A stretch of DNA of 41,149 bases from an uncultured Victivallales bacterium. Lineage in GTDB: Bacteria > Verrucomicrobiota > Kiritimatiellia > UBA8416 > CAYOBW01. Position numbers and translations under genes: made by a program. Location: assembly GCA_964402115.1 (NCBI GenBank), contig CAYOBW010000001.1:63645-104793 (forward strand). The letters are read 5' to 3'. Position 1 is the first letter of the stretch; every line of letters starts with the position of its first letter. The notes under the pieces are model-generated. The model was not told where the DNA came from, did not search any database, and worked only from the letters and a program-made list of their open reading frames with translations. Shown here piece after piece: positions 261-25,991 of the stretch.

Positions 261-1502
261 ATGCATACATCCACGCGAAGATCCGTCCTCGTTCTGCTGG
301 GCGCCACGCTGTGCGGCGCCGGCCCCACGGGCGCGCAGGCGCCCGTCGCGCCGCCGGCCCCGGCGGGCACGAACGTGGCAGCCATCGCGGCTGCCGCTGC
401 CGCCGCACCGGGCGCCGGGCGCATCGAGTTTGTGCCGCCCAGCCACCAATGGCGCGTGTCGGGCGGGGCGTTGTACCGCACTTTCGACCGCGTCGGCTTC
501 CGCAGCGGCGCCTACTCGACGGCCGGCGCGGTGCCGCGGCTCTTCCCGGGGGGGCACGGCGTGGACTACGGGCCGGTGGGGCCGGCCGACGCCTACGCCG
601 ACCGGCAGTACGACAATGGTTTCGTGCGGCTCGACTCCGGCACCACGCTCAACGGCGACACCTGGTACTGGGGCTACGATGCCGCCGCGCAGGTGGGCGG
701 CGGGTCGCTGACCTTCCAGCGCGCCATGGGGACCGAAGCGCGCAGCGACGCCCGCTCCCTGGCGGAGCCGTACGCGTGGGAGGACGACACGCTCGCGGCG
801 CCTGGCGTCTTCGTCGAGGCCGAACGCTGCTTCAGCCAGATCGGCGGCGTGGACCTTGGCCTGCTGTTGAACGGCGCCTGGAGCGCGTTCGACGCGGAAC
901 ATGCCGGAACGTCGTTCTCGGCCGAACAGCGCTACCATGAGGAAGCCGTCGCGCTGACGGACCGCTACGAGCTGCTGGGTGTCGTGCCGCCGGCCGCGCC
1001 TTACGGCACGGCCACGTACGACGGCCCGGGGCCGCTGCTGCCCAACCTCCCGGCGGCGCGCACATCGTCCGCCGCCACCGTGTCCGACGGCGCGGCGAGC
1101 TTCGTCAACCGTGTCAGCGAGGCGGTGGACCTGGACGTGCTGACCCTGGCCCTGGCCGCCTCGGCCTCGCGCGAGTTCGGACGCGTGGCGCTGGAGCTGG
1201 CCGCGGGACCGTCGCTGTCGCTCGTGCTGGCCGACGCGACGTTTCACGAGGTGCTCACCGGCACGCGCGGCGGACGGACGTTCACCGTGAACGAGTGGAC
1301 GGCGTCGGATTCACGCGAGGCGTGGCAGTGGGGCGTTTTCGGGCAGGCGGGCCTGAATGTCGCCGTCACCGGGCGTCTGCGCCTGGGGGTGTTCGGCCGC
1401 TACGATTGGGTGGAAGACGTCGAGGGCCGGGTGGGGCCGTCGTCTTACACGGCTGAACTGTCGGGTGTGTCCGGGGGCGTCGTTCTGGGCTGGGTGAATT
1501 GA
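261..1502 (+). CDS. Hypothetical secreted protein (414 aa), possibly outer-membrane/beta-rich; likely co-transcribed with the giant gene
   Basis: ATG at 261 gives MHTSTRRSVLVLLGATLCGAGPTGAQA, a Sec-type signal peptide. Ala/Gly-rich with alternating beta-like C-terminus (...AELSGVSGGVVLGWVN). Stop at 1500-1502, only 15 nt before the start of the 14 kb gene. Confidence 0.55.
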   Translation: MHTSTRRSVLVLLGATLCGAGPTGAQAPVAPPAPAGTNVAAIAAAAAAAPGAGRIEFVPPSHQWRVSGGALYRTFDRVGFRSGAYSTAGAVPRLFPGGHGVDYGPVGPADAYADRQYDNGFVRLDSGTTLNGDTWYWGYDAAAQVGGGSLTFQRAMGTEARSDARSLAEPYAWEDDTLAAPGVFVEAERCFSQIGGVDLGLLLNGAWSAFDAEHAGTSFSAEQRYHEEAVALTDRYELLGVVPPAAPYGTATYDGPGPLLPNLPAARTSSAATVSDGAASFVNRVSEAVDLDVLTLALAASASREFGRVALELAAGPSLSLVLADATFHEVLTGTRGGRTFTVNEWTASDSREAWQWGVFGQAGLNVAVTGRLRLGVFGRYDWVEDVEGRVGPSSYTAELSGVSGGVVLGWVN

Positions 1503-1517
1503 GCAAGAGGTGCAACC

Positions 1518-4500
1518 ATGAAACGGTGCGCATGCGGTAAATGGGTCCTGGCGGCTGCCTTGGCGGCAGGCGCGACAGCGGGGCAGGCGGCGACGCCTGC
1601 CGTGGGCGTGCTCGGGCAGGAGTCCGACGGCACCATCAAACTCAGGCTGCAGGGCGGCACGAACAGCGTGCACGCGATCCAGGCTGGCAGCAACCTGGTG
1701 GACTGGGCCACCATTCTCGCGGTGCGCCCGGAAAGCACGAACGGGATCACGTTCACCGACCCGGAGAGCGCGAAGCAGCCGCGCCGCTACTACCGCGTCG
1801 TGGAGCACAAAGGCCTGCGCGATACGACGGCGCCGGGCTGGAATGGCGACCTGGGCCTGCGGTTCAGCCGGAGCGGCACGAACGGGCTGAACCTCGCCTG
1901 GGCCGGCGCCCGCGACGCGATCGGCGTGGCTGCCTACCGCATCTACATCAACGGCCGCCCGGCCACGACGCTGCTGGGCAACGTGCACAGCCTGACGTTG
2001 ACGGGGCTGGACTTCACCGAGCGGCAGGACATCCGGATCGAGGCCGTGGATGCCTCCGGCAACGTCTCCGGGCGCGAGGCGCTGATCTACGTGCCCGGCG
2101 ACGCGCTCCTCGCCGCGACCGACGACAGCGGCAATCTCTACGTCTCGGCGTGGCAGACCAACGCGTTCGCCAACCTGCAGGTCGTGGCGAACCTCGGCGT
2201 GATGGCGCGCGGCGTGACCATGGGGGATTTCGATCGCGACGGCATCCAGGACCTGGTGTCGTGCTATCACACGAACTGGCGCCTGTATCCCCGCTTCTTC
2301 CGCGGGCGGGCCGACGGCACGTACGAACCGGCGCGCGAACTGCCCAGCTGCGCGGGCGGCACGTGGGTCGCCGGCATGGCCGCGGACGACTATGACGCCG
2401 ACGGCTTCCTCGACTTCATCGTGGGCAGCGGCGACTCCGGCTGGCTGGGTTTCTACTGGGGTAACGGCGACGGCACCTTCACGGTTACCGAGGGGCAGTA
2501 CGCGGCCAACGGCCGCGCCATGGACAGCGGCGACGTCAACGAGGACGGCCTGCCCGACTTCGTGCGCGCGGAGTACGGGGCCGGCTACCTGCGCTGCTAC
2601 CTCTCGCGCGGCGACCGCACCTTCGCGCAGACCAACCTGGTCGGCGATGTGGGCGACGACCCCTACGGCGTGGCGCTCGGCGACTTCGACGAGGACGGAC
2701 ACCTCGACGTGCTGGCGAACAGCGGCGGCAGCGGCGACGCCTACCTGTACAAGGGCTACGGCAACGGCCTGTTCTCGAACGGCGTGAACGTGGCCTCCGT
2801 GGACGCAAACGACTATGCCGCGTGGGACGCCTGGGACTACAACGGCGACGGGCACCTCGACATCGTGATGACCACCTACAACAACCAGAACGTCTACTAC
2901 TACCCCGGCCTGGGCGATGGCGCCTTTGCCGCGCGCACGGTGCTGCCCAACCGTCCGGGCAACCGCTCCCTCGGCATCGCCGCCCCGCTGCTCGCGCCGC
3001 GGGTGGACGTGCGCATCAGCCCCGAGCTGCCCGCCGTCCCGCTCAACCGTTTCCTCGCCCTGGCCGCCGCGGGCGGGGGTGTCCGGCCGACCGACGCGTT
3101 TGCCTGGCGGTTCGACGACGGCAGCGTGCTCCACGGCCAGATCGTGAGCAATCGCTGGGCGACCGAGGGGCGCCGCGTCGTGCGGCTGACGCACACCAAC
3201 GCCACGGGGGTCGCGAGCGTGCGCGGCACCTGGATCACCGTGACCGGCCTGCCGCCCAGCGCCAATGCCGGCGGCCCCTACACGTTCGGCGAAGACAAGG
3301 CCAGCCAGCTGCGCTGGACGGCCGAACTCGACGGCGGCGCCTCCACCGACGACTTCCCGCTCGTTGCGTTCATCTGGAACTTCGGCGACGGCACGGTGGC
3401 GACCAACGGCACGAACACGGTTGTCACCCACACCTGGACCAACACGGGACCGTGGGCCGTGACTCTGACCGTCGTGGACCGGGCGCGCCAGCTCGGCACG
3501 AACCTCACTACCGTGACCTTCGTGCCCGGCGCACCCCCCGTGGCTGCCATCAGCGCGCCCTCCCAGGTGGACGAAGCCGTCGCCAGCCAGGGGCGCTGGA
3601 CCGTTCCGCTTTCCGCCGCCGCCTCCACCGACGACAACGGCATCTGGAAATACGAGTGGCGCTTCGGCGACGGCAAGACCGGCTCAGGGCGCGACGTGAC
3701 CGCGGCCTTCGCGGCCACCAACCACTACACGGTCGAACTGACGGTCACGGACCATGCCGGCCAGACCAACCGCACCACGCACGCCCTCGCCGTGGCTGAC
3801 AACGACTCCCCCGTTGCCCGTATCCGGGCTGCCGCGGTCGTGGACGAGACGGCGGCGCGCAACGGCGTCTGGAACGCGAATTTCTCGGCCGAGGATTCCA
3901 CCGACGACTTCGGCCTCTGGAAGTACGACTGGGCCTTCGGCGACGGCAAGACGGGCGCGGGCCGCACGGTGGGGACGACCTACGGGGCCGCGAACGCCTA
4001 CACCGTGACCCTGACGGTCACGGACCACGCCGGCCAGCGCCACAGCAGCACGTTCAACGTGCGGATCAAGGCCAACTACTACCCCATGCCCATGATCTGG
4101 GGACCGACGCGCCTGGACGAAGCCGTGGCCACGAACGGGCTGTGGTTCGGCGCGTGGGATGGCTCCATCTCCTCGGACGACACCGGCATTTCCCGCCACG
4201 ACTGGCGCTTCGGCGATGGCGACACGGCCAGCGGCTCGCGGGTCACGCACCAGTACCGCCGGGCCGGCGTCTACCCGCTCAGCCTCACGGTCACCGACCA
4301 CGGCAACCAGGCCATGACCGTTACGCAGCGCGTCACCGTGGCCGCGAACGAGCCGCCCGTGGCCCGGCTGACGGCCAGCCCGCTGACGCCCGAGGGGGCG
4401 CAGCCCGTGGACTTCAGCGCCGCTGCCTCCACTGACGACTTCGGGATCATGCGCTACCGCTGGCTGCTGCCGCCGCGCGTCTTCGCGTTCGACGGCAACG

Positions 4501-7500
4501 CCGTCGACCACCTGCAGTGGGTCGCCACGGATGGCGTGACGCAGGGCGACCGGCTGGCGGTGGCGGGCGTAAGCACGTGGGACACCCGCTACGTTCTTGC
4601 GCGCGACACCCTGTTGCGCCGCGGTTCCGTCTTCGAGTGTCGCGTCGACACCGCCGCCGGCAGCGGCACGCACGCCATGGTTGGGTTCAAGAATTTGAAC
4701 GCGGCCAGCGGGCACTACAACCAATTTCCGTGCGCGCTGTACTTCAACAACGGCACCCTCGAGGTGTATGAGTACGGCAGCGGCCGGGGCAGCTTCGGCG
4801 GCTACACGCGCGGCACCTCCTACGACGTGCGCATCGAAACCAAGCCCGACGCCGGCGCTCGCTACTACCTGCGGGCCAGCGGCACGGGCGACGCCTTCCA
4901 GCTCGTCTACGACAGCCCGAACCAGGCGGACACCGCCTTTTCGTTCGGGATGGTCGTGTATGCCGGCACGTTCGGCCTGGACGACGTGCGCGTGACCGAA
5001 GTCTACCGCGACGCGCGCGCCCTGCGCGCGCCCGTGTGGCCCGCGGGTACGGTCACGCTGGAAGTGGTGGACCACGCGATGCAGACCGCCCGCACCAGCG
5101 TCGCGATCAATTCCTTCACCGGCGCGCCGCCTGCCGCGGTCATCAGCGGTCCCGCGGGCGGGGCCACCGGCGCCGAACTCGCGTTCGACGGCTCCGGATC
5201 GAGCGACGATCACGGCGTGGCCTCGTACATGTGGAGCTTCGGCGACGGCACGCCCGCTGCCTACACCGCGCTGGCGCCGCACTTCTTCGGGGCGGCCGGC
5301 GTTTACGAGGTCACGCTGGCTGTGCGCGACTTCGCGGGGCAGGCCAGCGTGGCCACGCAGCGGGTGACGATCGTGGGCGAGCCGCTCGTGGTAGCCGTGC
5401 CCTGGCGCATCGTGGGCGATGTGGAGTTGCCGCACGAAACCTGGACCAACCGGACGATTACGCTGAAGGCCGTGGCTGAGAACGTCGCGACGCCGTTCGA
5501 CTGGCGCTGGGATTTCGGCGACGGCTCGCCGGCGGTCACGGGCACGGCCGCGACCGTGGCGCAAGCGTTTGGACTCGAAGCGCGCCATGCCTACACGGGC
5601 TCCGAGGGCACGCCTTTCACGGCCACGATCACGATTACGACCACGAACGGCCTCTCCTCGTCCGACAGGTACTCCGTGTTGATCCGTCCGAAGACGCTGA
5701 AGGCGGAGATGAACGTAGCCATCGACGAGGGCTTGTGGTTCATGCACAAGAGCCAGGTGCGCAATTTCGCCAATCCCGCCAGGCCCGAAGGCTACTGGGA
5801 ATTCCGGGGCTACGGCTACTTCCTGGAGAACGTGACGGCGTCTGCCGTTCAGGGCTACGCGATCAACGGGCACCAGGAAGGGGGCGACGCCGCCCGCGAT
5901 CCTTATGTCAACACCGTCAGGCGGGCTGTCACGTTCCTGCTGAACCGCCTCCGCAGCGTCAGCATCGCGACGCAGACGTATGGCGACCCGGACAGCAACC
6001 GCAACGGCATCGGCCTGGTCGCCAGCGACGACCGGGGCCCCTACAATGTCGGGCCGATCATCGACGCCCTGGTGGCCAACGGTGACCCGGAACGGATTGC
6101 CCAAACGGGAGCCGCCAACGTGCGCGGGCGGTACTATCGCGACCTCGTGGCCGACATGGTTGACGCCTATGCCTGGGCGCAGTCGGATCAAACGTGGGGC
6201 GGCGGCTGGCAGTATGGCTGGAACGATCAGGCCGCCGACAACTCGGTCAGCCAGTGGGGCGCCATCGGCATGCTCGCCGCCGAGCACTACTGGCGCCTCG
6301 AAGCGCCCCGCTGGGCGAAAGAGCGCAACCTCGTGTGGCTGGAAAACACCCGCGGCGCGTCCGGCTGGGCTTACCAGAGTCGCGGGGACTCGCTCGTCCT
6401 CACGCCCTCGGCGCTGATTCAGGCGACGTGGGCCGGGCTGACGACCGGCAGCGGTTACTGGCGGCAAGGCGAGGACTACATTGCCAGGAACTGGGCGACG
6501 ATCATGAGCTGGTACGACATGTACGCCGAGTTCGGCATCGCCAAGGCCATGCGGCTGGCGCAGCCGCAACCCGTCACCCGGTTTGCGGCCACGGGCAAGG
6601 ACTGGTTCCTCGATCCCGTGGATGGCATGGCGCGGCTGACGATCGACCGCCAGGGCGGGGACGGCTCGTGGCTGGCTTCCTCGCGTTCCTACCTCGGCGA
6701 CCGGATGATGTCCAGCGCCTGGTCCATTCTCATCCTGTCCAGTTCGCTCTTCCAGCAGGGGCCGGTCGCCGTGGTCCATGTGCGGCCGAATCCCTGCAAG
6801 ATCGCCTGGCCCGTGCGCTTCGACGCCTCGGGTTCCTACCACCAGCACCCCTCCTTCCGCATCACCGAGTACCGCTGGGACTTCGACCAGGCTGACGGCG
6901 TGAACTTCGACACGCCCGACGCCGTCGGCCCCATTGTCCAGCACCCCTTTGGCAGCAACCGCACCTACACGGTGTCGCTGCAGGTGCGCGACAACAACAC
7001 GCCGCCCGCCTATGACGTGGCGCTGCTGACGGTCGCGATCAACGACCTGCCGCATCCGCCCGTGGCTGACGCCGGCGGGCCGTACGTGGCCGCCGTGGGC
7101 GAAGCGCTCCACCTCGACGGCACGGGCTCGTTCGACATCGACGTTTCCGACGGCGACGCCATCCGCGCCTACGACTGGGATGTGGACTTCGTGCAGCCGC
7201 TGGACTTCGCCGACGGCGTGACGGGGTCGCAGCCGCACGTCCTCCAGGGCTTCGCCGCGGCGGGCGTGCACAACGTCGGCCTGCGGGTCACGGACAGCAC
7301 GGCCAGCGTCTACCCGAACCAGCAAAGCGACTTGTCGAGCGACGCGTTCGCCACGGTCACGGTTTACGACGAGCTGGTGACCGATCTCCGCGCGCGCCCC
7401 AAGCGCAGCAAGATCCAGCTGACCTGGACGCAGGTCGGCGTCCGGGTCGACGTGCACCGGAGCACGGTTAGCGCCAGCACGGGCTTCGTGAAGATCGGCG

Positions 7501-10500
7501 AGACGACCTCGCCGTATGCGACCTACCTGGACAGCACGGTCGCAGAGGGCGCGGACTACTTCTACCGCATCTACGTGTTCGACCTCACCCATCCCGACCC
7601 CATCGGCGTTTCGCGCGCGGTTTACGCGAAGGCGCCGCGCGCGGGCGACGCCGCCGGCGCTGCCCCGTTCTTCACCTCCACCCCGCCGACGGGCGCGACG
7701 CTGGGGCGGACGTACGCCTACCAGGCGCGCGCCGTGGATCCCGGCGGCAGCGCGCTCGTGTACGAACTGCTGGCCGGACCCACCGGCATGGTGGTCAACG
7801 CCGCCGGCGGGTTCGTGACGCTGACGCCGACCGTGGCTCAACTGGGCCAGCACGACGTCTGGCTGCAGGCGCGCAATCCCGCCGGCCAGACCGCGCTGCA
7901 GGCCTACAAGCTGACAATCGACGCGACGGTGAACCAGCCGCCCGTGGCGGCGCTGCAGGGGCCGCGCACCGGCGTGCAGGGCGCGGCGCTGGCCTTCGCC
8001 TCGCTCGGCACGCAGGATCCTGACGGCGATGCGCTCGGCTATCTCTGGAGCTTCGGCGACGGGGCGACGGCGGCCACGCCCAACCCCGTGCATGTCTACC
8101 CGGCGGCCGGGCTGTACAGCGTGCAGCTCTTTGTCAACGATGGCCACGGCGGCACCGCCAGCGCCTCGCTGCTGGTCGGCATCACGCCGCCCAACCGCGC
8201 GCCGGTGGCTCTCGTCGATGGCGGGCCGGCCTTCGCCGTGCGCATGCGCCATCCCCTGGCGCTGAACGGCCGCCCGTCCTACGACTACGACGGCGATCCG
8301 CTGACTTTCGCCTGGAGCTGGGGCGATGGCGCGCCGGACGGCGCCGGCCTCGCCGCGAGCCACGCCTACGGCGCGCTGGGCACGTTCACCGGCCGCCTGG
8401 CCGTGACCGACGGCCGCGGCGGGCGCGGCGAGTACGCGTTCACCGTCGCGGTCTCCGCCTCCAACCGCTTCCCCGTCGCGGCACTTGACGTTCCGCAGCC
8501 GGGTACGAACGTCATGGACCGGTTCACCTTCGACGCGTCCGCCTCCACGGATCCTGACAACGATCCGCTGCTCTACTACTGGAACTTCGGCGACAACTCC
8601 GCGATCATGGGTCCCGTGGCCGCGCACTTCTACGCGCAGCCGGGCGATTACACCGTGCGCGTCGCCGTTGTGGACAACCACGCCGCGACGGGCATGGCGC
8701 TGCGCGTGGTCCACGTCAACGCGCCGCCCGTGTTCCAATCCACGCCGTCGCTCACCAACCGGCAGGGCGCCGCCTACACTTACCGGCCCGTGGTCACGGA
8801 CGCCGACGGCGACCCGCTCGCGTTCTCGCTGGCCACGGGGCCGGCGACGATGGGCCTGGAGAGCCCGACCAACGGCGTGCTGAACTGGACGACGAGCAAC
8901 GACGACGTTGGCGCCAACCGCGTCGCGCTGGTCGTTACCGACGGTCACGGCAGCGTGGTCACGCAGGCCTTCGTGGTCACCGTGGCGGATGTGAACGACC
9001 CGCCCGAGATCAGCTCGACCCCCGGCACCAATGCGACCGAGGAGGTGCTCTACACGTACCAGCTGCACGCCCGCGACGTGGACGACACGAACCTCCAGTT
9101 CAGTCTCGTGACCCGGCCGCCGAACATGGTGCTGAACCCGATCAGCGGGCTGCTGTGGTGGACGCCCGAGAACGTTCACACCGGCGCGAACCCGGTTGTC
9201 GTGACCGTGAGCGACCCGCGCGGCGGCGTGGCGACGCAGCGCTTCACGATCGTCGTGGCCGACGTGAACGATCCGCCCGTGATCACGACCACTCCGGTCG
9301 TCGCGGCGACGGAAGACACGCCTTACACGCATGACGTGGACGCGGCGGACCCGGACGATGCGGCCGGCACGCTGCGCTTTGCGCTGAACCTGGCCCCGCC
9401 GGGCATGGTCATCGACCATGTCACGGGCGTGATCGCCTGGACCCCGCTCGCGGCCTCGCCGGGCGAGCCGGTGCAGGTTGTCGCTTTCGACCCGCGCGGC
9501 GGGGTGGCGACCCAGGGCTTCACCGTGGTCGTGGCCAACGTGAACGATGCCCCGGTGATCGGCTCCCGGCCGGTCTACCAGGCGCTGGTCAACGTTGGCT
9601 ATCGCTACGACGTCAACGCCACGGACGAGGACGGTGACGCCCTCGCGTACGAGCTGGGCGCCGGCCCCGCGGGCCTGGCGATCGACCCGGCCAGCGGCCT
9701 CGTCACCTGGACCCCGGCGGCGGGGCAGGAGGGGACGGCCACCGTCACCGTCGTTGCGCGCGACGCCCCGGGCGCCACCGGCTCGCAGACGTACACGCTC
9801 GTGGTGCAGGCGGCCAACCGCGCTCCGTTCTTCACCAGCGTGGCGCCTGCCACGGCATCCGAGGACCGGCTCTACACGTACGACGCGAACGCCACCGACC
9901 CCGACGGCAACCCGCTGACGTACCAGCTCGCGGGCCTGCTGCCGGCGGACCTGACCTGCGACCCGGCCACGGGCCTCGTTCAGTGGACGCCGTCCGCCGC
10001 CTACAACGGGGACGTGGTGACCGTGCAGGTGTGGGCGGCCGATGCCTTCATCGGCACGAGCCAGACCTTTACCGTGACCGTGGCGCCCGTGAACGACGCG
10101 CCCGTCTTCACCTCCGCGCCCGTGACCAATGCCGAGGTGGGCATGGTGTACGGCTACACGGCGGAGGCCGTGGATGAAGAGGGCGACGCCATCGCGTACA
10201 GCCTGCCGACCGCTCCGGCCGGGCTCGCTCTGACCGCCGCCGGCGCGGGCGCGACAAACGTGCTGACCTGGCGGCCCGCGGCCGGGCAGGTCGGCGCGCG
10301 CGCGGTCGTCGTGCGGGCGCGCGATGCGGGCGGCGCCGTGACCGACCAGTCCTTCACCGTGCGGGTCGTGGACGGGCGGCACCCGCCCGTCGTGGCCGGC
10401 ATCGGCGACCAGGTCGTGCAGGATCCGAACGCCTTCCTGCAGGTCGCGCTCGATGACTTCGTGGCGGACCCCGACCACGCGGACGCCGAACTGGCGTGGA

Positions 10501-13500
10501 CCGTGCAGGGCCGGTCGCGGCTGACGGTGGCCATCACCAACCGCATCGCCACCATCGGCTACGCCCCCGGCACGCGCGTCACCGAGACGCTCACCTTCAC
10601 GGCCCGCGACCCCGACAACCTGACCGGCTTCGCGACGGCTACCTTCACCGTCGCGGAGCCATCGCAGGACAGCGTGCCGCCGGTGCTGTTCCTGGACATC
10701 CCCGAGGGCGGGGAGCGCAACACGCCCCTGGCCCTCGACGTTCTGGCCGAGGACAACGAGGGTGTGGCCAACGTGACGGTCAAGGTCGATGGCGTGGCGC
10801 GGCCCGTGCAGAACCTCGGCGGCGGCCGCTACCGGGTGATCTACACCACGCCCGCGGTCGGCTTGCACACCGTGCTGGCCACCGTGATCGACCGCGCCGG
10901 AAACGCCTTCAGCGACACGCGCACGACGCTGATCGTCGACCCGGCCGTGACAGCCGCCGGCCTGCAGGCGGCCATCACGGCGCCGGTCGAGGACGCGCTC
11001 CTGGGCGACGTGACCGAGGTGCAGGGCACGGCGCTCGGGCCGAACTTCGTCGACTACGTGCTGGAGTATGCGGAGAACGGCACGGCGGACTACGTGGAGT
11101 TCGCGCGCGGCGCGGCCCCGGTGGCCGACGGGCCGCTGGGCACGCTCGACCCGTCCACGCTGCCCGCCGGCGTTTACACGCTGCGGCTGACCGTGCGCAA
11201 CACCGGCGGCGCCAAGCGCAGCGCCAGCATCGTGGTGGAGCTGACCGGCAACGAGATCATCGGGCCGTTCGCCCTGCGCTTCAAGGACAAGACCCTGCAC
11301 GTGGGCGGCTTCCCGATCGGCATCGTGCGCACCTACGACAACCGCGCGCGCGGCGTGCCCGGCGACTTCGGCTACGGCTGGGACCTGGCCTTCTCCGACG
11401 TGAAGCTGGTGAGCCGCTACGTGCCGGGCGACCACTGGGTCATGGATACGGAGCGGGGCTTCTTCCCGGTCTACACGCTGCGGGCGACGAAACAGCAGAC
11501 GCTCACCGTGTACTTCGGCGACCGCGACAAGCACACCTTCCGCATGCAGCCGTCGCCGCGATCCTCGATCCTGTACCCGATCAGCTTCCTGGAAGGCATG
11601 GAGTATGACGCGGTGAGCGGGGCGAAGGGCAGCATCGCTCCGGACAGCGGCGCCTCCTACTTCGACGGCGGCGTGATCCTGGACGCGGGGTTCGAGATCT
11701 TCGACCCGCAGGTCTACCACTACACGGCGGCCAACGGCTACCGCTACACCTTCCGCAAGCCGCCGTCGGGCACCCTGCGGTACGAGCTCGAGCGCATCAC
11801 CGATCCCGATGGCAACAGCCTGACCATGTCCGATGCCGGCATCGTGCGCTCCGACGGCACGACGCTGCGCTTCGTGCGCGACGCGGCCAACCGCGTCATG
11901 CGCATTGAGGATCCGCTCGGCGCCACCATCCACTACGAGTACAGCGTGCGCGGCGACCTCGCGGCGGTGGTGGACGAGCTCGGCAACCGCACGACGTTCA
12001 TCTACAACCGCGACCACAACCTGCGGGAAATCCGCGACCCGCTCAACCGGCCGCTCCAGAAGCAGGAGTTCGACACGAACGGGCGCCTGGTGGCCCTCAC
12101 CGACGCCAACGGCAGCCGGCTGACGCTCGAGCACGACCTGGACGCCAACACGGAGATCCTCCGCGACCGGCGCGGCAACGCGAAGATCTTCCAGTACAAC
12201 GACGCCGGCTACGTGCTCAAGCAGACCGAGTTCCCGACCGTGCACGGCGTGGTCATGCCCGTCACGACCACGAACGAGTACGCCGCCGAGAACCGGCTTG
12301 CGGCCGACAACCTCGGCGGGCGGCGGCGCGCGTACACGTACGACGCCACCGGCAAGCTGCTGAGCGAGATCGTCGACGTGGGCGGGCTCAACCTCGCCAC
12401 CCGCTACACCTACTCGGCCGCCGGCAAGCTGGAGAGCGTGCTCGACGCCAACGGCCATGTGGCCACGAACCTCTACAACGCCAGCAGGCAGCGCACGCAG
12501 CGCGTGGACCGGGCCGGCGCCGTGACCACCTACACCTACGGCGCCCAGGGGCGGCGCGTGCGCGAGACGGACGCCCTCGGCAACTACACGGAGTACGACT
12601 ACGACGGGCGCAGCAACAAGATCCGCAGCGAGCGCTTCAGCGCCGACGGCGTGAGCCTGCGCAAGCAAACCTACACCTACGACGCCAACGGCAACAAGCT
12701 CACGGAGACCCTGCACCTGACCGTCGACGGCGTCGCGCAGCCGGTGACCACGAGCTACCGCCATGACGCGAAGGGCCGCGTGGTGGCCGTGACGGACGCG
12801 CTTGGGCACACCGCCAGCAATGTCTACGACAGCCTCGGGCAGGTGATCGAGACGGTGGACAAGCTCGGCGGGCGCACGCGCTACACCTACGACATGATGC
12901 GGCAGCTCGTGCGCACCGACCACCCGGACGGCACCTTCGAGACGCGCGCCTACGATCCGGACGGCAACGCCACGTCGCGCACGGACCGGGCGGGGGTGAC
13001 CCGGGTCTATGCCTACGATGCGGTCAAGCGCATCACGCAGGTCACGTCGCCCGGCGGCGCGGCGCGGCGCTTCGAGTACGATGTCTTCGGCAACCGCACG
13101 GCGGAGATCGACGAGTTCGGGCAGCGCACCGACTACGTCTTCGACAAGGCCGGCCGCCAGCTGGCCGTGCTGCTGCCGTCGGTCGTGGACGCCCGCAGCG
13201 GCGCAGCCGGGCGGCCGGTCATCGGGCACGCGTACGATCCCAACGGCAATCTCACGGCCCTGGTGGATGCGAACAGCAACCGCACGGCGTACGTTTTCGA
13301 CGCCGAGAACCGCCTGCTGGCGACGCGCCTCGCGGACGGGCACGTGCTGACCAACCGCTACGACGCGCTGGGCCGTCTCGTGGCCAAGAGCGATGCCGCG
13401 GGGAATACGGTGACGTACGCGTTCGACGCCCTCGACCGCGTCGTCTCCGTCACCCAGCCCGCCGTGGCCGGGCAGCCCGCGGCGGTGACCCGCTACGCGT

Positions 13501-15548
13501 ACGACGAGGCGGGCAACCTGCTCACCGCCACGGACGCGCGCGGCCGCGTGACGCAGTTCGCGTACGACCTGGCCGGCCGGCGCACGGCGCGCACCCTCCC
13601 GGGGGGGCAGCGCGAAACCTTCGCCTATGACGCTATGGGGCAGGTCGTGGCACACACCGACTTCAACGGGCGGCTCACGCGCTACAGCTTCGACGCGGGC
13701 GGCCGCCTGACGGGCAAGGATCTGCCGGCGGGTCCCGACGTGCAACTCAGCTACGACGCGGGCGGCCGCCTGCAGCGCGTGGTGGACGGCCTGGGTACGA
13801 CGTCCTACGGCTACGACGCGCTCGGCCGCACCGCCGCGGTGACGAACCCGACCGGGAGCACCGTCACGTACAGCTACGATGCGGCGGGCAATATCCTGAC
13901 CGTCGCGAGCGCCGGCGGCGCCACGGCCTACACGTACGACGCGCTCAAGCGCGTAACCGCCGTGCGTGACAGCCGCGGTCTGACCACCACCATGGGCTAC
14001 GATCCGGCCGGCAACCTGGTGAGGCAGGCGCTGCCCAACGGCGTGGGCATGGTGCGTTCCTTCAATACGCGCGACCAGCTCGTGGGCGTGGTCAACCGGC
14101 GCAGCGACAACACGCTCCTCAGCTCGTTCGCCTACACGCTCGACGCCAACGGGCTGCGCACCGGCGTCATGGAAGCGGACGGCTCGGCCGTGACGTATGT
14201 CTACGATGCCCGCTACCGGCTCACGTCCGAGACCCGCACGGGCGCGGGCGCCTACGTCACCACGTACGCGTACGACCTGGTGGGCAACCGTACCGCCGCC
14301 AGCCTGGGCGGGACGGCGGTGGCCTACACGTACGACGCGAACGACCGCCTGACCGGAACCGGCACGGAAACGTATTACTACGACGCCAGCGGCAACATGA
14401 CCGGCCGCACGGATGCCGCCGGCTTCACGGCGCTGGGCTACGACGAGGAGAACCGGCTGACGCGCGTCACGGCGCCGGGCGGCGCCGTCACCACCTACGC
14501 GTACGACCTCTACGGCAACCGCGTGCGCCGGACCGACGGCGGCGGCACGCGGGAGTTCGTCGTGGACCCGCGCAACCTCAGCGGCCAGGCGCAGGTCGTG
14601 GACGAGCTCGACGGCGCGGGCGGGGTCGTGACGCACTACACGCGGGGCGCCTCGCTGCTGGCCGAGGACGAGGGCGCCACCCGGCTCTATTACGTGGCCG
14701 ACGGCCAGGGCAGCACGCGGCAGCTCGTGAACGGCGCCCAGGCGGTGACCGACACGTTCCGCTACGATGGCTACGGGCGGCTGCTCGACCGCACCGGCGC
14801 GCACGACACGCCGTTCCAGTTCACGGGCGAGGCTTACGACCCGGCCGTGGGCGCGTACTACCTGCGCGCGCGCTACTACGACCCGCGCACCGGGCGCTTC
14901 CTCGGCATGGACCCGGACCTGGGCGGGCTCAAGGATCCGACCAGCCTGCACCGCTATCTCTACGCGCACAACAACCCCGTGAACCTGCTCGACCCGAGCG
15001 GCCGGTTCTCGCTGTGCGAGGTGAGTATCAGCATCAACATCCAGGCCTCGCTCCAGTCCGCCTACGTGAAGAGCGTGATCACGACGGGGCTGGACCTCGT
15101 CGAGATCATCTTCTGCATGCTCGAGCCGGCGTGGGATATGGTCTGGATGGGCCTCGACATGATCGTCAACGACGTGCCCGGCGGCGAGGCGATGTTCTCC
15201 GAGGGCAAGCGCCTGGAGGCCGGCGCGTTCCAGGCCATGCAGCAGCGGATCGCGGACCACTTCCAGGAACTGGCCGACGAACTGAATCCCGTGAAGATCG
15301 AGATCGAGAGCGACCTGCTGGATTACTACGAGCAGGCCAAGGAGGCCTGGGAATCCCTGCAGAACGGCGACCTGCCCATGCCGCCGCTGCCGGAGAAGAT
15401 CCAGAACATCCTCGACTTCAAGGACAAGGTCACCGAGTACTTGGGCGCCTTCACCGACGCGCTCGATGACGAGAAGAGCAACTGCGAAAGGTTCAAAGGC
15501 ATTTCCACGCTGGCCAAGGGCGCCCTGGAGTACCTGCCGGAATTCTAA
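1518..15548 (+). CDS. Giant (4676 aa) secreted multidomain surface protein: adhesin-like array fused to a complete Rhs/YD-repeat shell plus an unknown C-terminal domain
   Basis: RBS agagg upstream of ATG 1518. Signal peptide MKRCACGKWVLAAALAAGATAGQA. FN3-like (aa~100-190). FG-GAP/VCBS repeats (GDFDRDGIQDLV, DYDADGFLDFIVGSGDSGW, LGDFDEDGHLDVL, WDYNGDGHLDIV). Multiple PKD domains (WRFGDGKTG, WAFGDGKTG, WNFGDGTV, WSFGDGTP...). ConA-like segment. Alpha/alpha-toroid segment (GGGWQYGWNDQAADNSVSQWGAIGM). Repeated cadherin-like/putative-Ig modules (APVFTSAPVTNAEVGMVYGYTAEAVDEEGDAIAYSL). Rhs shell start (GIVRTYDNRARGVPGDFGYGWDL), dozens of YD repeats (YTYDANGNKLTE, YAYDAVKRIT...). Rhs core RARYYDPRTGRFLGMDPDLGG...NPVNLLDPSGRF, then a ~180 aa tail. 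The uninterrupted 14 kb frame in high-GC DNA is itself strong evidence. Confidence 0.93.
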   Translation: MKRCACGKWVLAAALAAGATAGQAATPAVGVLGQESDGTIKLRLQGGTNSVHAIQAGSNLVDWATILAVRPESTNGITFTDPESAKQPRRYYRVVEHKGLRDTTAPGWNGDLGLRFSRSGTNGLNLAWAGARDAIGVAAYRIYINGRPATTLLGNVHSLTLTGLDFTERQDIRIEAVDASGNVSGREALIYVPGDALLAATDDSGNLYVSAWQTNAFANLQVVANLGVMARGVTMGDFDRDGIQDLVSCYHTNWRLYPRFFRGRADGTYEPARELPSCAGGTWVAGMAADDYDADGFLDFIVGSGDSGWLGFYWGNGDGTFTVTEGQYAANGRAMDSGDVNEDGLPDFVRAEYGAGYLRCYLSRGDRTFAQTNLVGDVGDDPYGVALGDFDEDGHLDVLANSGGSGDAYLYKGYGNGLFSNGVNVASVDANDYAAWDAWDYNGDGHLDIVMTTYNNQNVYYYPGLGDGAFAARTVLPNRPGNRSLGIAAPLLAPRVDVRISPELPAVPLNRFLALAAAGGGVRPTDAFAWRFDDGSVLHGQIVSNRWATEGRRVVRLTHTNATGVASVRGTWITVTGLPPSANAGGPYTFGEDKASQLRWTAELDGGASTDDFPLVAFIWNFGDGTVATNGTNTVVTHTWTNTGPWAVTLTVVDRARQLGTNLTTVTFVPGAPPVAAISAPSQVDEAVASQGRWTVPLSAAASTDDNGIWKYEWRFGDGKTGSGRDVTAAFAATNHYTVELTVTDHAGQTNRTTHALAVADNDSPVARIRAAAVVDETAARNGVWNANFSAEDSTDDFGLWKYDWAFGDGKTGAGRTVGTTYGAANAYTVTLTVTDHAGQRHSSTFNVRIKANYYPMPMIWGPTRLDEAVATNGLWFGAWDGSISSDDTGISRHDWRFGDGDTASGSRVTHQYRRAGVYPLSLTVTDHGNQAMTVTQRVTVAANEPPVARLTASPLTPEGAQPVDFSAAASTDDFGIMRYRWLLPPRVFAFDGNAVDHLQWVATDGVTQGDRLAVAGVSTWDTRYVLARDTLLRRGSVFECRVDTAAGSGTHAMVGFKNLNAASGHYNQFPCALYFNNGTLEVYEYGSGRGSFGGYTRGTSYDVRIETKPDAGARYYLRASGTGDAFQLVYDSPNQADTAFSFGMVVYAGTFGLDDVRVTEVYRDARALRAPVWPAGTVTLEVVDHAMQTARTSVAINSFTGAPPAAVISGPAGGATGAELAFDGSGSSDDHGVASYMWSFGDGTPAAYTALAPHFFGAAGVYEVTLAVRDFAGQASVATQRVTIVGEPLVVAVPWRIVGDVELPHETWTNRTITLKAVAENVATPFDWRWDFGDGSPAVTGTAATVAQAFGLEARHAYTGSEGTPFTATITITTTNGLSSSDRYSVLIRPKTLKAEMNVAIDEGLWFMHKSQVRNFANPARPEGYWEFRGYGYFLENVTASAVQGYAINGHQEGGDAARDPYVNTVRRAVTFLLNRLRSVSIATQTYGDPDSNRNGIGLVASDDRGPYNVGPIIDALVANGDPERIAQTGAANVRGRYYRDLVADMVDAYAWAQSDQTWGGGWQYGWNDQAADNSVSQWGAIGMLAAEHYWRLEAPRWAKERNLVWLENTRGASGWAYQSRGDSLVLTPSALIQATWAGLTTGSGYWRQGEDYIARNWATIMSWYDMYAEFGIAKAMRLAQPQPVTRFAATGKDWFLDPVDGMARLTIDRQGGDGSWLASSRSYLGDRMMSSAWSILILSSSLFQQGPVAVVHVRPNPCKIAWPVRFDASGSYHQHPSFRITEYRWDFDQADGVNFDTPDAVGPIVQHPFGSNRTYTVSLQVRDNNTPPAYDVALLTVAINDLPHPPVADAGGPYVAAVGEALHLDGTGSFDIDVSDGDAIRAYDWDVDFVQPLDFADGVTGSQPHVLQGFAAAGVHNVGLRVTDSTASVYPNQQSDLSSDAFATVTVYDELVTDLRARPKRSKIQLTWTQVGVRVDVHRSTVSASTGFVKIGETTSPYATYLDSTVAEGADYFYRIYVFDLTHPDPIGVSRAVYAKAPRAGDAAGAAPFFTSTPPTGATLGRTYAYQARAVDPGGSALVYELLAGPTGMVVNAAGGFVTLTPTVAQLGQHDVWLQARNPAGQTALQAYKLTIDATVNQPPVAALQGPRTGVQGAALAFASLGTQDPDGDALGYLWSFGDGATAATPNPVHVYPAAGLYSVQLFVNDGHGGTASASLLVGITPPNRAPVALVDGGPAFAVRMRHPLALNGRPSYDYDGDPLTFAWSWGDGAPDGAGLAASHAYGALGTFTGRLAVTDGRGGRGEYAFTVAVSASNRFPVAALDVPQPGTNVMDRFTFDASASTDPDNDPLLYYWNFGDNSAIMGPVAAHFYAQPGDYTVRVAVVDNHAATGMALRVVHVNAPPVFQSTPSLTNRQGAAYTYRPVVTDADGDPLAFSLATGPATMGLESPTNGVLNWTTSNDDVGANRVALVVTDGHGSVVTQAFVVTVADVNDPPEISSTPGTNATEEVLYTYQLHARDVDDTNLQFSLVTRPPNMVLNPISGLLWWTPENVHTGANPVVVTVSDPRGGVATQRFTIVVADVNDPPVITTTPVVAATEDTPYTHDVDAADPDDAAGTLRFALNLAPPGMVIDHVTGVIAWTPLAASPGEPVQVVAFDPRGGVATQGFTVVVANVNDAPVIGSRPVYQALVNVGYRYDVNATDEDGDALAYELGAGPAGLAIDPASGLVTWTPAAGQEGTATVTVVARDAPGATGSQTYTLVVQAANRAPFFTSVAPATASEDRLYTYDANATDPDGNPLTYQLAGLLPADLTCDPATGLVQWTPSAAYNGDVVTVQVWAADAFIGTSQTFTVTVAPVNDAPVFTSAPVTNAEVGMVYGYTAEAVDEEGDAIAYSLPTAPAGLALTAAGAGATNVLTWRPAAGQVGARAVVVRARDAGGAVTDQSFTVRVVDGRHPPVVAGIGDQVVQDPNAFLQVALDDFVADPDHADAELAWTVQGRSRLTVAITNRIATIGYAPGTRVTETLTFTARDPDNLTGFATATFTVAEPSQDSVPPVLFLDIPEGGERNTPLALDVLAEDNEGVANVTVKVDGVARPVQNLGGGRYRVIYTTPAVGLHTVLATVIDRAGNAFSDTRTTLIVDPAVTAAGLQAAITAPVEDALLGDVTEVQGTALGPNFVDYVLEYAENGTADYVEFARGAAPVADGPLGTLDPSTLPAGVYTLRLTVRNTGGAKRSASIVVELTGNEIIGPFALRFKDKTLHVGGFPIGIVRTYDNRARGVPGDFGYGWDLAFSDVKLVSRYVPGDHWVMDTERGFFPVYTLRATKQQTLTVYFGDRDKHTFRMQPSPRSSILYPISFLEGMEYDAVSGAKGSIAPDSGASYFDGGVILDAGFEIFDPQVYHYTAANGYRYTFRKPPSGTLRYELERITDPDGNSLTMSDAGIVRSDGTTLRFVRDAANRVMRIEDPLGATIHYEYSVRGDLAAVVDELGNRTTFIYNRDHNLREIRDPLNRPLQKQEFDTNGRLVALTDANGSRLTLEHDLDANTEILRDRRGNAKIFQYNDAGYVLKQTEFPTVHGVVMPVTTTNEYAAENRLAADNLGGRRRAYTYDATGKLLSEIVDVGGLNLATRYTYSAAGKLESVLDANGHVATNLYNASRQRTQRVDRAGAVTTYTYGAQGRRVRETDALGNYTEYDYDGRSNKIRSERFSADGVSLRKQTYTYDANGNKLTETLHLTVDGVAQPVTTSYRHDAKGRVVAVTDALGHTASNVYDSLGQVIETVDKLGGRTRYTYDMMRQLVRTDHPDGTFETRAYDPDGNATSRTDRAGVTRVYAYDAVKRITQVTSPGGAARRFEYDVFGNRTAEIDEFGQRTDYVFDKAGRQLAVLLPSVVDARSGAAGRPVIGHAYDPNGNLTALVDANSNRTAYVFDAENRLLATRLADGHVLTNRYDALGRLVAKSDAAGNTVTYAFDALDRVVSVTQPAVAGQPAAVTRYAYDEAGNLLTATDARGRVTQFAYDLAGRRTARTLPGGQRETFAYDAMGQVVAHTDFNGRLTRYSFDAGGRLTGKDLPAGPDVQLSYDAGGRLQRVVDGLGTTSYGYDALGRTAAVTNPTGSTVTYSYDAAGNILTVASAGGATAYTYDALKRVTAVRDSRGLTTTMGYDPAGNLVRQALPNGVGMVRSFNTRDQLVGVVNRRSDNTLLSSFAYTLDANGLRTGVMEADGSAVTYVYDARYRLTSETRTGAGAYVTTYAYDLVGNRTAASLGGTAVAYTYDANDRLTGTGTETYYYDASGNMTGRTDAAGFTALGYDEENRLTRVTAPGGAVTTYAYDLYGNRVRRTDGGGTREFVVDPRNLSGQAQVVDELDGAGGVVTHYTRGASLLAEDEGATRLYYVADGQGSTRQLVNGAQAVTDTFRYDGYGRLLDRTGAHDTPFQFTGEAYDPAVGAYYLRARYYDPRTGRFLGMDPDLGGLKDPTSLHRYLYAHNNPVNLLDPSGRFSLCEVSISINIQASLQSAYVKSVITTGLDLVEIIFCMLEPAWDMVWMGLDMIVNDVPGGEAMFSEGKRLEAGAFQAMQQRIADHFQELADELNPVKIEIESDLLDYYEQAKEAWESLQNGDLPMPPLPEKIQNILDFKDKVTEYLGAFTDALDDEKSNCERFKGISTLAKGALEYLPEF

Positions 15549-15560: not shown

Positions 15561-18500
15561 TCACCAGGGTTGGACGGCGCGAACCCGGAAGCAGGCGCTG
15601 GTGCGCCACGCGGGGGGCAGGCGCAGCCACGCCGACTCCAGCGCCGGGTCGGTGTGCGGCGTGAGCGTTGGCGTCGGCGTGGTGAGGGACTGCCAGAGCG
15701 GCAGCCGCGGCGCATACTCCGTGGTGTAAACCAGCGCGTGCAGGCCGGCGGCACGGCGGACGTAGCCGAATTCGACCGCTTCTCCCGCTTGCTGGATCCG
15801 CAGGCGCGCGCCGCGGGGGTCGGCGATCAACGGCTGGCTGCCGAAGGCGTACTCGGCCAGGTTCACGACCCCGTCGCCGTCCGGATCGTCCTGCCACGCC
15901 GCAAGGGTGGCCCCGAAGTGGCGGCGCTGCCAGGCCCCGGCGCAGGGTTCGGGTTGCGCGGCGGCCAGCGCGGCGATTTCGGCGGGGGCCAGGGCGCGCG
16001 GGTAGATGCGCACCTCGTCGAGCACCCCGCTGAAATAGCGGTTCTGCACGTCGCTGCCAACCTTGACCGGAGCCGTCGAGGTCGTATGGATCGCCTGCGG
16101 ATCCTGCAGGCTGAGCACGGTCTCGCGCGCGCCGTCCACGAAGAGCAGCACGTTGGTCACATCGGCGGAGGGCTGGTTGGTGAAGGTGCAGGCGATGTGG
16201 TGCCACTGCCCGTCGTTGACCAGCCGGCTGCCCTGGACCCAGCCTTGCGTAACCTCCAGCCGCGCGTTGCCGTCCTTGATGAGGAACGTCCATTTGTCGC
16301 CGGCCGTGTTGGGGCCCCAGGCGATGACGGGCATCTGCCCCGTGCCGGTGGTCTGGATCCAGGCCGCGCAGGTACGCGCGTCGGCGCCGCGGATGCCGAG
16401 GAAACCCGTCAGGCTGACGTAGTCATTCGTGCCGTCGAACCGGAGCCCGTAGCCGCAGCGGCCCGGAACCCATGCTGCGGCTTCATCCGCCACATTGACC
16501 AGGGCCGCAGGCCACCCGCCGCCGGCCTCGCGCGTGGTCAGTCCGCTGTTCTGGTTGAGCGGGTACCAGAACTCGCCGTTATGGAAATAGACCGCAACGG
16601 TGACCGTGGCCGTCGCGCTGAAGGCGCTGTCGGTGACGCTGTAGGTGAAGCGATCTTCGCCGAGAAACCCGGGGTTGGGCGTATAGAGGATGCGGCCATC
16701 CGCCTCCACTGCGCTGCCGGCGGCAGGGTGGCCGACGGAGGCGAGCGCGAGGGCGGACGGCAGGTCGTCGTCCGTGTCGTTGGCGAGCACGTCGATGTAC
16801 ACGGCGCTGTCCTGGGGCGTGGCGGCGGCATCGGCCGCGGGCTGCGGGGGGGCGTTCGCCGCGGCTCCGTCGCGCCGGAAGGCCGTATCCGGGATGGCCT
16901 GCCGGGCGAACCCCGGCCCGCTCCACTGCAGCGCGAGCGCGGGCGTACCGCCCGTACCCCGTGCGTAGTAAAGCCGGAACGGGTGCAGGCCGGCGGTCAA
17001 GGTGGCGCTGGCGGAGCGCTCGGTTCCGCCCGTGTAGGCGAAGTCCGCGTCGAGCACGGTGGCCTCGTGCAGGCGCAGCAGCGCCCGGGCGTCGGTGGTG
17101 AGGAAGAAGGTGTACGAGCCGGTGGCCGGCACGCGCAGGTAGCCGGAGAAGAGGAGTCCGATGTCGGTGTCGCGCGGCCGGATGCCGAGGTCGGGTCGCG
17201 CCACGGTGCCGGTGCTCGAAGGGGGCAGGGCGGTGAGTTCCGGCACCCAGGGGAAGGCCGCGCTGCAGGCGCGCCAGACCACGCCGCTGACCGTTGCCAC
17301 GGAGGCGAGCGCCGGCACGGGTTCGGCGTCGTAGGGCCGCGGCGCTGCGCCGTCAGGGCGGCGCAGGCGCAAGACGCGGTCCTTCAGCTGCAGTTGCAGC
17401 GCGGCGTTGGCGGACGCCAGGTTGACCGTCTCCCGCGGGTCGTTGACGACGTCGTAGATCTCGAAGTCATCCGCGTGCGACTGGATGTCGTAGCGCACGC
17501 CCAGGTAGTCGCCGTGGCGGATGGCCTGCATCTGGTTGCGCGCGCGTCCGCGCTTCGCGGCCTGGAACTCCGCGTACGCAGGGGTCGTGCCGCTGTAGGC
17601 ATACTCGACGTAGACCGTGGGCGTGCGCTGCGTCCCGCTGCCGGTCAGCGTGGGCGCCAGCGACACGCCGTCGCTGCGGGCGGGTGCCGGCACGCCGGCC
17701 AGGTCGGCGAAGGTGGGCAGCCAGTCAGGGAAGCTGCAGGGCAGGTTGCTGACCCGGTTGGTCCCGATGTTGCCAGGCCAGCACGCCAGCGCGCCGACGC
17801 GGATGCCGCCCTCCCAGCAGTCGCGCTTCATGCCGTCGAAGGGGCCGAAGCTGTTGAAGAAATCCGGCCTGTAGTTGACCGTGAAGTTCAGGTAGTCCTC
17901 GTTGCTCGGCCCGTTGTCCGAGGTGAAGACGATGAGCGTGTTGTCGGCGATGCCGAGATCGCCCAGCAGCTTCCGCAGGTCGCCGACGGCGTCGTCGATG
18001 CGCCGCACGCTGGTGGCGTAGCGCTTGTAGACGGCCGGCCAGGCCACTTCGGCGGTGTCGCCGTTGCCGTCGTCGTCATAGGTGGCGCCGCTGTAGTCGG
18101 GGTGCACGTAGCTGTCCACGGCGCCGGTGGCGGTGTTGATCATCTGCCCGGGCGTGCCCAGCCACTGCAGCCCGCCGCCCAGCCCGCCGCCCGCGGGATA
18201 GGCCATGGTCGGCAGTTCCAGCACGGCGTGGGGCGTGTCGTAGGCGAGAAACAGGAAGAAGGGGCGGGCGGGGTCGTCCGCGTGCCGCTCGACGATCCAC
18301 TGCTTGGCGCGCGCCGTGAACAGGTCGGTGGTGTAGCACGCGTCGAGGTCGGCGGAGACTTCGCGGCCGTTGTCCCAGACCTCCTTCGCGCCGCCGTAGG
18401 TGCCCTCCTTGGGGTAATGCTCGTGGCCGTCGCCGTGGCGCACGTAGCCGAAGTAGTCGTCGAACCCGCAGCGGGTGGGATAGCTGGACCACGTCGCGGC

Positions 18501-23032: not shown

Positions 23033-23039
23033 TTGCGTG

Positions 23040-23393: not shown

Positions 23394-23404
23394 GACGACC
23401 TCCT

Positions 23405-25927: not shown

Positions 25928-25991
25928 AAGGCCGCGCCTCCGTTTCTGCCGCCCACCTCGCGATACGCTTCGGCGCCGCAAGGGCGGAGCG

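Follow-up and report, generated by a model that had tools for sequence, protein, structure and literature searches.

Rhs toxins that leave the cell by the Sec pathway were reportedly described by Koskiniemi in 2013, as WapA-type proteins of Bacillus and Streptococcus. In 2012 Zhang et al. catalogued RHS toxins that depend on Sec and have a propeller or an adhesin at the N-terminus, reported polymorphic toxins dependent on Sec and the type II secretion system (T2SS) that carry RHS and beta-propeller repeats "in all bacteria", and mentioned an RHS toxin of the verrucomicrobium Pedosphaera (PMC3482391). WapA-type toxins are Sec-exported Rhs proteins (PMC12704120), and contact-dependent action has been proposed for the Sec-dependent Rhs class (PMC3482391, PMC12704120). 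Raoelijaona et al. (Nat Commun 2026) have since described bacterial teneurin-like proteins (TLPs) from six phyla, Verrucomicrobiota not included, that combine Sec signals with diverse N-terminal adhesin modules and an autoproteolytic YD shell enclosing a toxin of ~15 kDa; an immunity gene lies downstream, a TIP domain is found in 96% of TLPs and the route of delivery is unknown (PMC13018210). How Rhs/teneurin-type cages without the machinery of type VI secretion systems (T6SS) or Tc toxins reach their targets and act on them is an open question in that study (PMC13018210). Proteomics of the outer membrane of Akkermansia, a verrucomicrobium, has also turned up YD-repeat proteins (PMC4960237). 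Here we analyze 41,149 nucleotides (nt) of DNA from an uncultured Victivallales bacterium (GenBank assembly GCA_964402115.1, contig CAYOBW010000001.1, positions 63,645 to 104,793), hereafter the window, which has a GC content of ~70% and contains a single gene for an adhesin-Rhs protein of 4676 amino acids (aa) and 500 kDa, hereafter the giant protein.

We favor a model in which the giant protein is probably a Sec-exported, surface-displayed, T6SS-independent Rhs/YD-repeat protein of the polymorphic-toxin type, made by a diderm bacterium. The order of its parts, with a signal peptide, a long extracellular array, an Rhs cage and a short tail, is very likely correct, and autoproteolysis and encapsulation of the tail are likely. 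The design itself, a secreted adhesin array joined to an Rhs cage, is established. What sets the giant protein apart is how large it is, the phylum it comes from, an orphan cargo family that lacks an immunity gene and a conserved partner gene for a small outer-membrane barrel. It leaves the picture of Rhs biology unchanged and extends it to another phylum.

The evidence for the cage comes from profiles, catalytic residues and solved structures. The repeat region is recognized by RHS_repeat (PF05593, 17 stretches) and by YD_repeat_2x (TIGR01643, E 5.7e-90), and aa 4416-4495 by Rhs_assc_core (TIGR03696), with a score exceeding the cut-off of that family. The core has the bipartite DPxG motif and the catalytic Arg/Asp/Asp residues: R2103, D2116 and D2140 of the TLP known as BiTLP (9pt5) align on R4452, D4465 and D4492 of the giant protein, and the cleavage point of BiTLP (DPSGL/) aligns on DPSGR/F, where autocleavage is predicted after R4496. 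Residues 3240-4496 align in unbroken order along the closed cage of structure 8h8a, from about residue 311 to the end of its chain at residue 1151 (E 1.8e-52; query 256-329, 508-927 and 1023-1256 on chain 311-385, 503-932 and 929-1151), and the 8h8a chain terminates at its own cleavage site. Against 9pt5 the alignment is confined to the C-terminal half of the shell (BiTLP residues 1578-2143, E 5e-45). The start of the cage, GIVRTYDNRARGVPGDFGYGWDL, aligns with the start of the Photorhabdus Rhs1 cage (7q97 residues 262-298), a weak match when taken alone, and lies only ~180 aa ahead of the first YD units. By homology to solved cages, rather than from a three-dimensional model of this one, the shell is predicted to close around the C-terminal domain.

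The coding signal is uniform along the gene. A single frame runs without interruption from an ATG that is the earliest start codon following the upstream stop and that has an AAGAGG ribosome-binding site 7 nt on its 5' side. Long chance open reading frames (ORFs) are expected in a genome of 70% GC. The GC content of the three codon positions (GC1/2/3) is 0.66/0.51/0.93 in the giant ORF, with GC3 between 0.86 and 0.99 across all 100-codon blocks, the final 180 codons included. An antisense ORF of 3858 aa inside the gene (3684-15260, reverse strand) fails the codon-position GC test and was rejected as a high-GC shadow ORF. Promoter and terminator scans around both ends of the giant gene returned no match.

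An earlier reading of the sequence, made without database searches (hereafter the original prediction), had already described one uninterrupted 4676-codon frame and a complete Rhs shell running through a YYDPRTGRF...DPSGRF core. The single ORF with its uniform GC3 bears out the first claim, and the repeat and core profiles with the intact catalytic residues bear out the second; at sequence level we see nothing of the open solenoid lacking core protease residues that would have spoken against it. For the N-terminal array we combined a self-profile map with Pfam and NCBIfam scans, which covered the full-length protein as well as ten overlapping segments of it. The scans gave FG-GAP (5-6 matches), PKD_4 (12), He_PIG (6-7) with Big_9 and cadherin-like modules, Big_13 and RHS_repeat, and the map resolved 13 PKD-type, 7 He_PIG-type and 21 YD units. 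The predicted FG-GAP/VCBS propeller and at least eight PKD domains are recovered in this way, and the Sec-type signal peptide can be read from the sequence. The ~10 cadherin-like modules are right in type, with a count of 6-7 by Pfam and 7 by self-profile, and the FN3 module is present but weak. Two inserts that had been called ConA-like (aa ~1016-1201) and an alpha/alpha toroid (aa ~1397-1745) have no Pfam match at E<=1 and no sequence or profile match in the PDB. Both labels are unconfirmed, the toroid one being plausible by eye.

The fusion of adhesin array and cage is, judging by homologous sequences, a natural one, because a homologue of 4612 aa is collinear with the giant protein over ~4000 residues. 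This protein (P0024), encoded on a 14.4-kb contig of 39% GC, gives a single high-scoring segment pair of 4027 residues at 37% identity that spans the junction between array and cage, has a separate FG-GAP match at its N-terminus and carries the same Pfam repertoire. Both inserts are conserved modules in it (38-44% identity): the first is kept and duplicated, and the second is 44% identical. P0024 was found in a HMMER search with the 180-aa tail against 1.84 billion representatives, and in three further proteins (P0018, P0004, P0003) immunoglobulin-like (Ig) modules are fused to the same cage and tail. The whole stalk-plus-cage architecture of 4000 residues is therefore conserved, at 37% identity, in two organisms whose GC contents are as far apart as 70% and 39%. 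More distantly, a scan with aa 3001-3600 over one genome per species found 37 loci, none above 33% identity, in Clostridia, cyanobacteria, Actinomycetota, Polyangiaceae and a planctomycete. Two of the 37 code for giants built in the same way, in Trichormus (3475 aa; DUF4114, Big_9, He_PIG, VWA, cadherin-like modules and RHS) and in a metagenome-assembled genome (MAG) of the Polyangiaceae (4030 aa; signal peptide, TSP3, fibrinogen-C and RHS), and a pre-cage Ig domain accompanies the cage in relatives of other phyla.

These features suggest how the protein could work. Once the signal peptide is removed, the ~3200 N-terminal residues, composed of the propeller, ~23 Ig-like modules and the two globular inserts, would form a long stalk. 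The last ~1250 residues before the tail would fold into a closed Rhs cocoon, as their collinearity with solved cages suggests, and the aspartyl protease of the core, with R4452, D4465 and D4492 in place, would cut after R4496 and thereby detach the acidic helical tail, 180 aa long, within the cage. The stalk could keep the cage away from the cell and bind a target surface, whereupon some trigger would release the cargo. The product of the upstream barrel gene may tether the fibre to the outer membrane, a step on which we are less confident. Coordinates of all these elements are collected in Table 1.

Table 1. The giant gene, the parts of its product and the two flanking genes, in window positions.
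Feature	Positions	Strand	Basis and details
Barrel gene	261..1502	+	413 aa, signal peptide; predicted 8-stranded outer-membrane beta-barrel; stop 15 nt before the ATG of the giant gene
Giant gene	1518..15548	+	4676 codons and stop, product ~500 kDa; ATG start, coding composition
Sec-type signal peptide MKRCACGKWVLAAALAAGATAGQA, no lipobox	1518..1589	+	aa 1-24; read directly from the sequence, not by a predictor
Small N-terminal domain ending RRYYRVVEH	1593..1811	+	aa 26-98; no Pfam/NCBIfam match
FN3-like module	1854..2063	+	aa 113-182; weak, E 0.004-0.02, below the Pfam cut-off
FG-GAP/VCBS-type beta-propeller	2109..2987	+	aa ~198-490; FG-GAP_3 E 1.2e-37, 6 stretches
Six tandem PKD domains	2988..4562	+	aa 491-1015; Pfam and self-profile
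Insert without family assignment (formerly "ConA-like")	4563..5120	+	aa 1016-1201; no Pfam/PDB match
Two PKD domains	5121..5603	+	aa 1202-1362; Pfam and self-profile
Insert of ~350 aa (formerly "alpha/alpha toroid")	5706..6752	+	aa 1397-1745; repeated GGW/DGSW motifs
Two PKD domains	6753..7313	+	aa 1746-1932; Pfam and self-profile
Three PKD and seven He_PIG/Big_9/cadherin-like Ig modules	7656..10367	+	aa 2047-2950; Pfam and self-profile
Further Ig-like modules and pre-cage Ig domain	10368..11237	+	Big_13 aa 3078-3141, pre-cage Ig aa ~3150-3240; Pfam, homologues
Rhs/YD-repeat cage, beginning at DKTLHVGGFPIGIVRTYDNRARGVPGDFGYGWDL	11238..14762	+	aa 3241-4415; RHS_repeat E 1.7e-108, 21 YD units
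Rhs-associated core/aspartyl autoprotease	14763..15005	+	aa 4416-4496; TIGR03696 E 1.5e-19
Cargo tail	15006..15545	+	aa 4497-4676, 180 aa, 20.2 kDa, isoelectric point 4.2; predicted all-helical; C4533/C4656; C-terminal PxF
Convergent sulfatase gene with PA14, Big_9/cadherin-like and LamG domains	15561..18947	-	1128 aa; stop 12 nt from the stop of the giant gene

Among described systems the TLPs come close. Like BiTLP (9pt5/9ifo), the giant protein has a Sec signal and N-terminal adhesion modules, a YD shell with an autoproteolytic DPxG...DPxG core and its conserved Arg, a small polymorphic C-terminal domain, here predicted to lie within the shell, and no known delivery machinery, and its core and C-terminal shell half align with those of BiTLP. 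It differs in having no detectable NHL propeller or FN-plug beside the shell (aa 3080-3450, no match at E<=1), a cargo of 20 kDa where the TLP mean is ~15 kDa, a far larger N-terminal array and no downstream immunity gene. Strict membership of the TLP family was rejected on the missing NHL and FN-plug and the partial alignment. The original prediction had called the architecture teneurin-like, which in the strict sense does not hold. Nor is the architecture unprecedented, as the published precedents (PMC3482391, PMC13018210) and the giants of Trichormus and the Polyangiaceae show. The same prediction saw a contact-dependent, surface-displayed cage for a toxin or signal; the Sec-exported cage stands, and the toxin role does not follow from a cargo without recognizable fold or family and without an immunity gene. 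Its placement of the DNA in a non-proteobacterial lineage is supported by the neighbourhoods and the one named member of the barrel family described below, which make Verrucomicrobiota the probable phylum.

With the WapA-type proteins and the class of Zhang et al., the giant protein shares a signal peptide, surface-binding modules, RHS repeats, an Rhs core and a variable C-terminal domain. Those systems, however, have a cognate immunity gene directly 3' of the toxin gene, which the giant gene lacks, and WapA is anchored in the Gram-positive wall, whereas the giant protein has either to pass through an outer membrane or to reside on one. It is also about twice the size of WapA.

The tail is the least familiar part of the protein. 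It matches no Pfam or NCBIfam family, a word-based homologue search was likewise empty, and the exhaustive HMMER search found only 24 relatives. All 24 lie at the extreme C-terminus of their proteins, directly behind a DPxG(K/R/E)F Rhs core, and the family, whose hosts range from 39 to 74% GC, has two invariant cysteines and mostly ends in PxF. It was not found in the 37 distant Rhs loci. Because it is carried behind Rhs cores with differing N-terminal arrays (FG-GAP/PKD, MopE repeats or He_PIG), the tail appears to behave like a polymorphic-toxin module. In one of these loci (L040), a 2298-aa FG-GAP-Rhs protein with the same tail (positions 665-7561) is followed by a second giant ORF (7575-13561; >1995 aa in the sequence, 3132 aa called) with a signal peptide and PKD-like repeats.

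We consider the chances that the cargo is a toxin to be evenly balanced. Permeabilization of a membrane is its most likely function, a tentative suggestion that we make because the best-conserved part of the tail is a long amphipathic or hydrophobic helical hairpin with a conserved, disulfide-type cysteine pair. Several observations weigh against this picture. The tail is acidic, and its maximal hydropathy of 1.37 is that of an amphipathic segment and below transmembrane level; the matches to its modelled fold are generic helical hairpins, at moderate model confidence (predicted local distance difference test score, pLDDT, 72.8). No immunity gene follows the tail, and there is no space for one, since the stop of the convergent sulfatase gene is only 12 nt away. 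Nor does a small gene come right after the tail in the three related loci with downstream sequence (L039, L040 and L041), where the neighbours are a short-chain dehydrogenase gene 200 nt on, the second giant ORF beginning 14 nt past the stop and an unrelated 258-aa ORF at 454 nt. A fourth locus (L038) has no gene in the 280 nt between the tail-bearing gene and the contig end, and a search for shared immunity genes found no downstream candidate common to the tail-family loci and the window. The absence of an immunity gene, which sets the locus apart from WapA, TLP and T6SS Rhs systems, is our main argument against an antibacterial toxin directed at kin, and points either to targets other than the producer's kin or to a non-toxic role. 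The locus offers a rare family of 20-kDa helical cargo with an invariant cysteine pair.

The non-toxic possibility is the strongest of the alternatives, although we think it unlikely. Here the giant protein would serve adhesion or recognition, with signalling of the teneurin kind, and cage and cargo would form a structural or ligand module. The lack of an immunity gene in the window and in the three tail-family loci fits this view, as does a cargo that is acidic, helical in its model and without an enzyme-like fold. The GC3 of the tail is native, unlike that of a recently swapped toxin cassette, and roles in cell-cell communication are left open for TLPs (PMC13018210). Yet the autoprotease triad is intact, whereas the motif is gone from the teneurins of metazoans, in which toxin release has ceased (PMC13018210), and the presence of the same tail on cages with unrelated N-terminal arrays is the kind of modularity typical of toxin modules.

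A toxin cage aimed at eukaryotes (a protist, an alga or a host), with a payload like that of Tc toxins, would need no immunity protein in the producer and so also accommodates the missing gene. The sulfatases, arabinofuranosidase and rhamnogalacturonan lyase encoded nearby suggest life on the surfaces of algal or plant polysaccharides, and the broad GC range of the tail-family hosts is compatible with such a target. We nevertheless regard this reading as improbable, for neither the protein nor the window contains a TcA-like translocator or the SpvB or TcB mid domains. The resemblance to the TcB-TcC cocoon (TcdB2-TccC3, 6h6e) lies in the cocoon itself with its aspartyl-protease core, which aligns at E ~1e-7 to 1e-11, and in an integrin-like (FG-GAP) propeller. 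The propeller of the giant protein cannot be the TcB gate because it is ~2700 residues from the cage. The protein was rejected as a Tc toxin subunit, with no SpvB or TcdB mid domains in it and no TcA gene among its neighbours.

Delivery by a T6SS encoded outside the window is rejected as scarcely credible. The T6SS Rhs effectors (RhsP 8h8a, Rhs1 7q97, Tse5 8cp6 and Tse15 8uxt) share the cage fold and the C-terminal autoprotease, and three T6SS Rhs proteins, 8h8a, 8qja and 7q97, are the closest solved cages by sequence (T6SS cages match at E 1e-52 to 1e-33). Against this, the giant protein begins with a Sec signal peptide and continues with 3200 aa of extracellular-type Ig modules and propeller, where those effectors have a PAAR, VgrG-binding or clade domain. 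Across all 4676 aa, Pfam and NCBIfam profiles detected no PAAR, DUF4150, VgrG, SpvB or TcA signature, and the 41-kb window holds no gene for PAAR, DUF4150, VgrG, Hcp, TssB/C, Eag, SpvB or TcA, in keeping with the original prediction, which saw no PAAR, DUF4150 or T6SS genes. Finally, an assembly or sequencing artefact joining separate adhesin and Rhs genes, one of two outcomes that the original prediction had named as fatal to its claim, is refuted by the one frame of uniform GC3, by the collinearity of P0024 across the junction and by the shared Ig-cage-tail order of P0018, P0004 and P0003, and has virtually no likelihood.

The gene immediately upstream of the giant gene may bear on how the protein is held at the cell surface. 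Its product has no Pfam or NCBIfam match and belongs to a small family: a profile search found 15 proteins, of which one carries the name "Verrucomicrobiales bacterium". An AlphaFold2 model built from a 14-sequence alignment has long beta-hairpins (pLDDT >85 over the C-terminal two thirds) in a barrel fold like those of OmpW, NspA and OmpA, and homologues end in GAGVGFRF, GRRW or GKEF, which resemble the beta-signal of outer-membrane proteins. The barrel and giant genes are probably co-transcribed. The 3' end of a further co-oriented gene (window 1-231, forward strand; 77 codons, GC3 0.88) stops 30 nt before the barrel gene, and the two genes may belong to a longer operon.

The pairing of this barrel with a large secreted protein recurs. 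Seven independent loci have, at a distance of 18-60 nt from the barrel gene and in the same orientation, a gene for a secreted propeller/Ig protein of 830 to >2600 aa. In most of them (L042, L043, L044/45, L052 with two copies, L053 and L054/55) the barrel gene comes first and a protein of 830-1360 aa, with an N-terminal NHL or DUF5122 beta-propeller and DUF1573/HYDIN-type Ig domains, follows 24-60 nt on in the same strand; in L046 the order is reversed, with the barrel gene 18 nt 3' of a >2600-aa ORF. L052 carries the cassette in tandem, with two barrel genes on one contig (8001-9161 and 15646-16806), each next to its own large propeller/Ig protein. DUF1501 and PSCyt/PSD genes, typical features of Planctomycetota and Verrucomicrobiota, are likewise present in the barrel loci. 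Judged by gene order, the giant Rhs protein thus appears to sit in the slot normally filled by a propeller/Ig surface protein, and its conserved association with a gene for a small outer-membrane barrel is one that experiments could address.

The partners in these loci share a C-terminal domain of ~100-220 aa that ends in ...SRFYRVAEL and reaches 77-90% identity among proteins that are unrelated in their other parts. Neither Pfam nor NCBIfam recognizes this domain, which has the look of a sorting or anchoring module that goes with the barrel family. The domain was seen in L042 (13062-13721), L043, L044, L052 and L054, on secreted proteins of 830-1600 aa. The arrangement is reminiscent of type IX secretion system (T9SS) type-B cargo, in which the giant adhesin SprB is encoded adjacent to a PorP/SprF-like barrel, SprF. 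As there, a giant surface adhesin gene adjoins a gene for a small dedicated outer-membrane barrel and, in the related loci, the partners have a conserved C-terminal domain. The likeness concerns the upstream gene only: its barrel is of another fold class, 8-stranded and OmpW/NspA-like, no T9SS genes were seen, and the giant protein has no significant copy of the shared domain.

By analogy, the upstream barrel could be the outer-membrane anchor of the giant fibre. Synteny alone connects the two, and we rate this role as less likely than not. The barrel itself is too small for a translocon. Two points count against the anchoring role: the copy in the window ends in LGWVN and not in an aromatic residue, and the profile of the partners' C-terminal domain scores -1.4 bits on the whole giant protein. 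That profile picks only aa 75-96 (RRYYRVVE), which reach 7.6 bits when the N-terminus is isolated, a score matched by one of 500 shuffles and thus a weak lead. It raises the possibility, which we rate as rather unlikely, that barrel and large secreted propeller/Ig partner form an undescribed verrucomicrobial surface-display cassette whose cargo slot is here occupied by an Rhs cage protein, with a distant "RFYRV" domain shifted to the N-terminal end, since the opposite end has to be the encapsulated cargo. Should this hold, it would provide the first genetic handle on T6SS-less display of Rhs/teneurin-type cages in diderms and bring with it a new cargo family needing no immunity protein.

The genes around the giant gene encode four proteins with sulfatase domains, a GH51-type arabinofuranosidase, a PL11 rhamnogalacturonan lyase and a xylose-isomerase-like TIM barrel, along with an SPFH protein, a thioredoxin-like protein, a hexapeptide-repeat (serine acetyltransferase-like) transferase, CutA and a PAS/GAF histidine kinase. 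Sulfatases, the arabinofuranosidase, the TIM barrel and the PL11 lyase, the last with FG-GAP repeats, are grouped at 21551-27116 and 36340-39063, which look like a neighbourhood for the utilization of sulfated polysaccharides. A tRNA search of the 41-kb window found none. Positions 39000-41149, with a GC content of ~0.58 against ~0.70 elsewhere in the window and two small ORFs (39822-40391 and 40461-40808) that have no Pfam match, may be foreign or intergenic DNA. On the reverse strand, a single 626-aa ORF at 32055-33935 fuses a MetX-type alpha/beta hydrolase to MetW.

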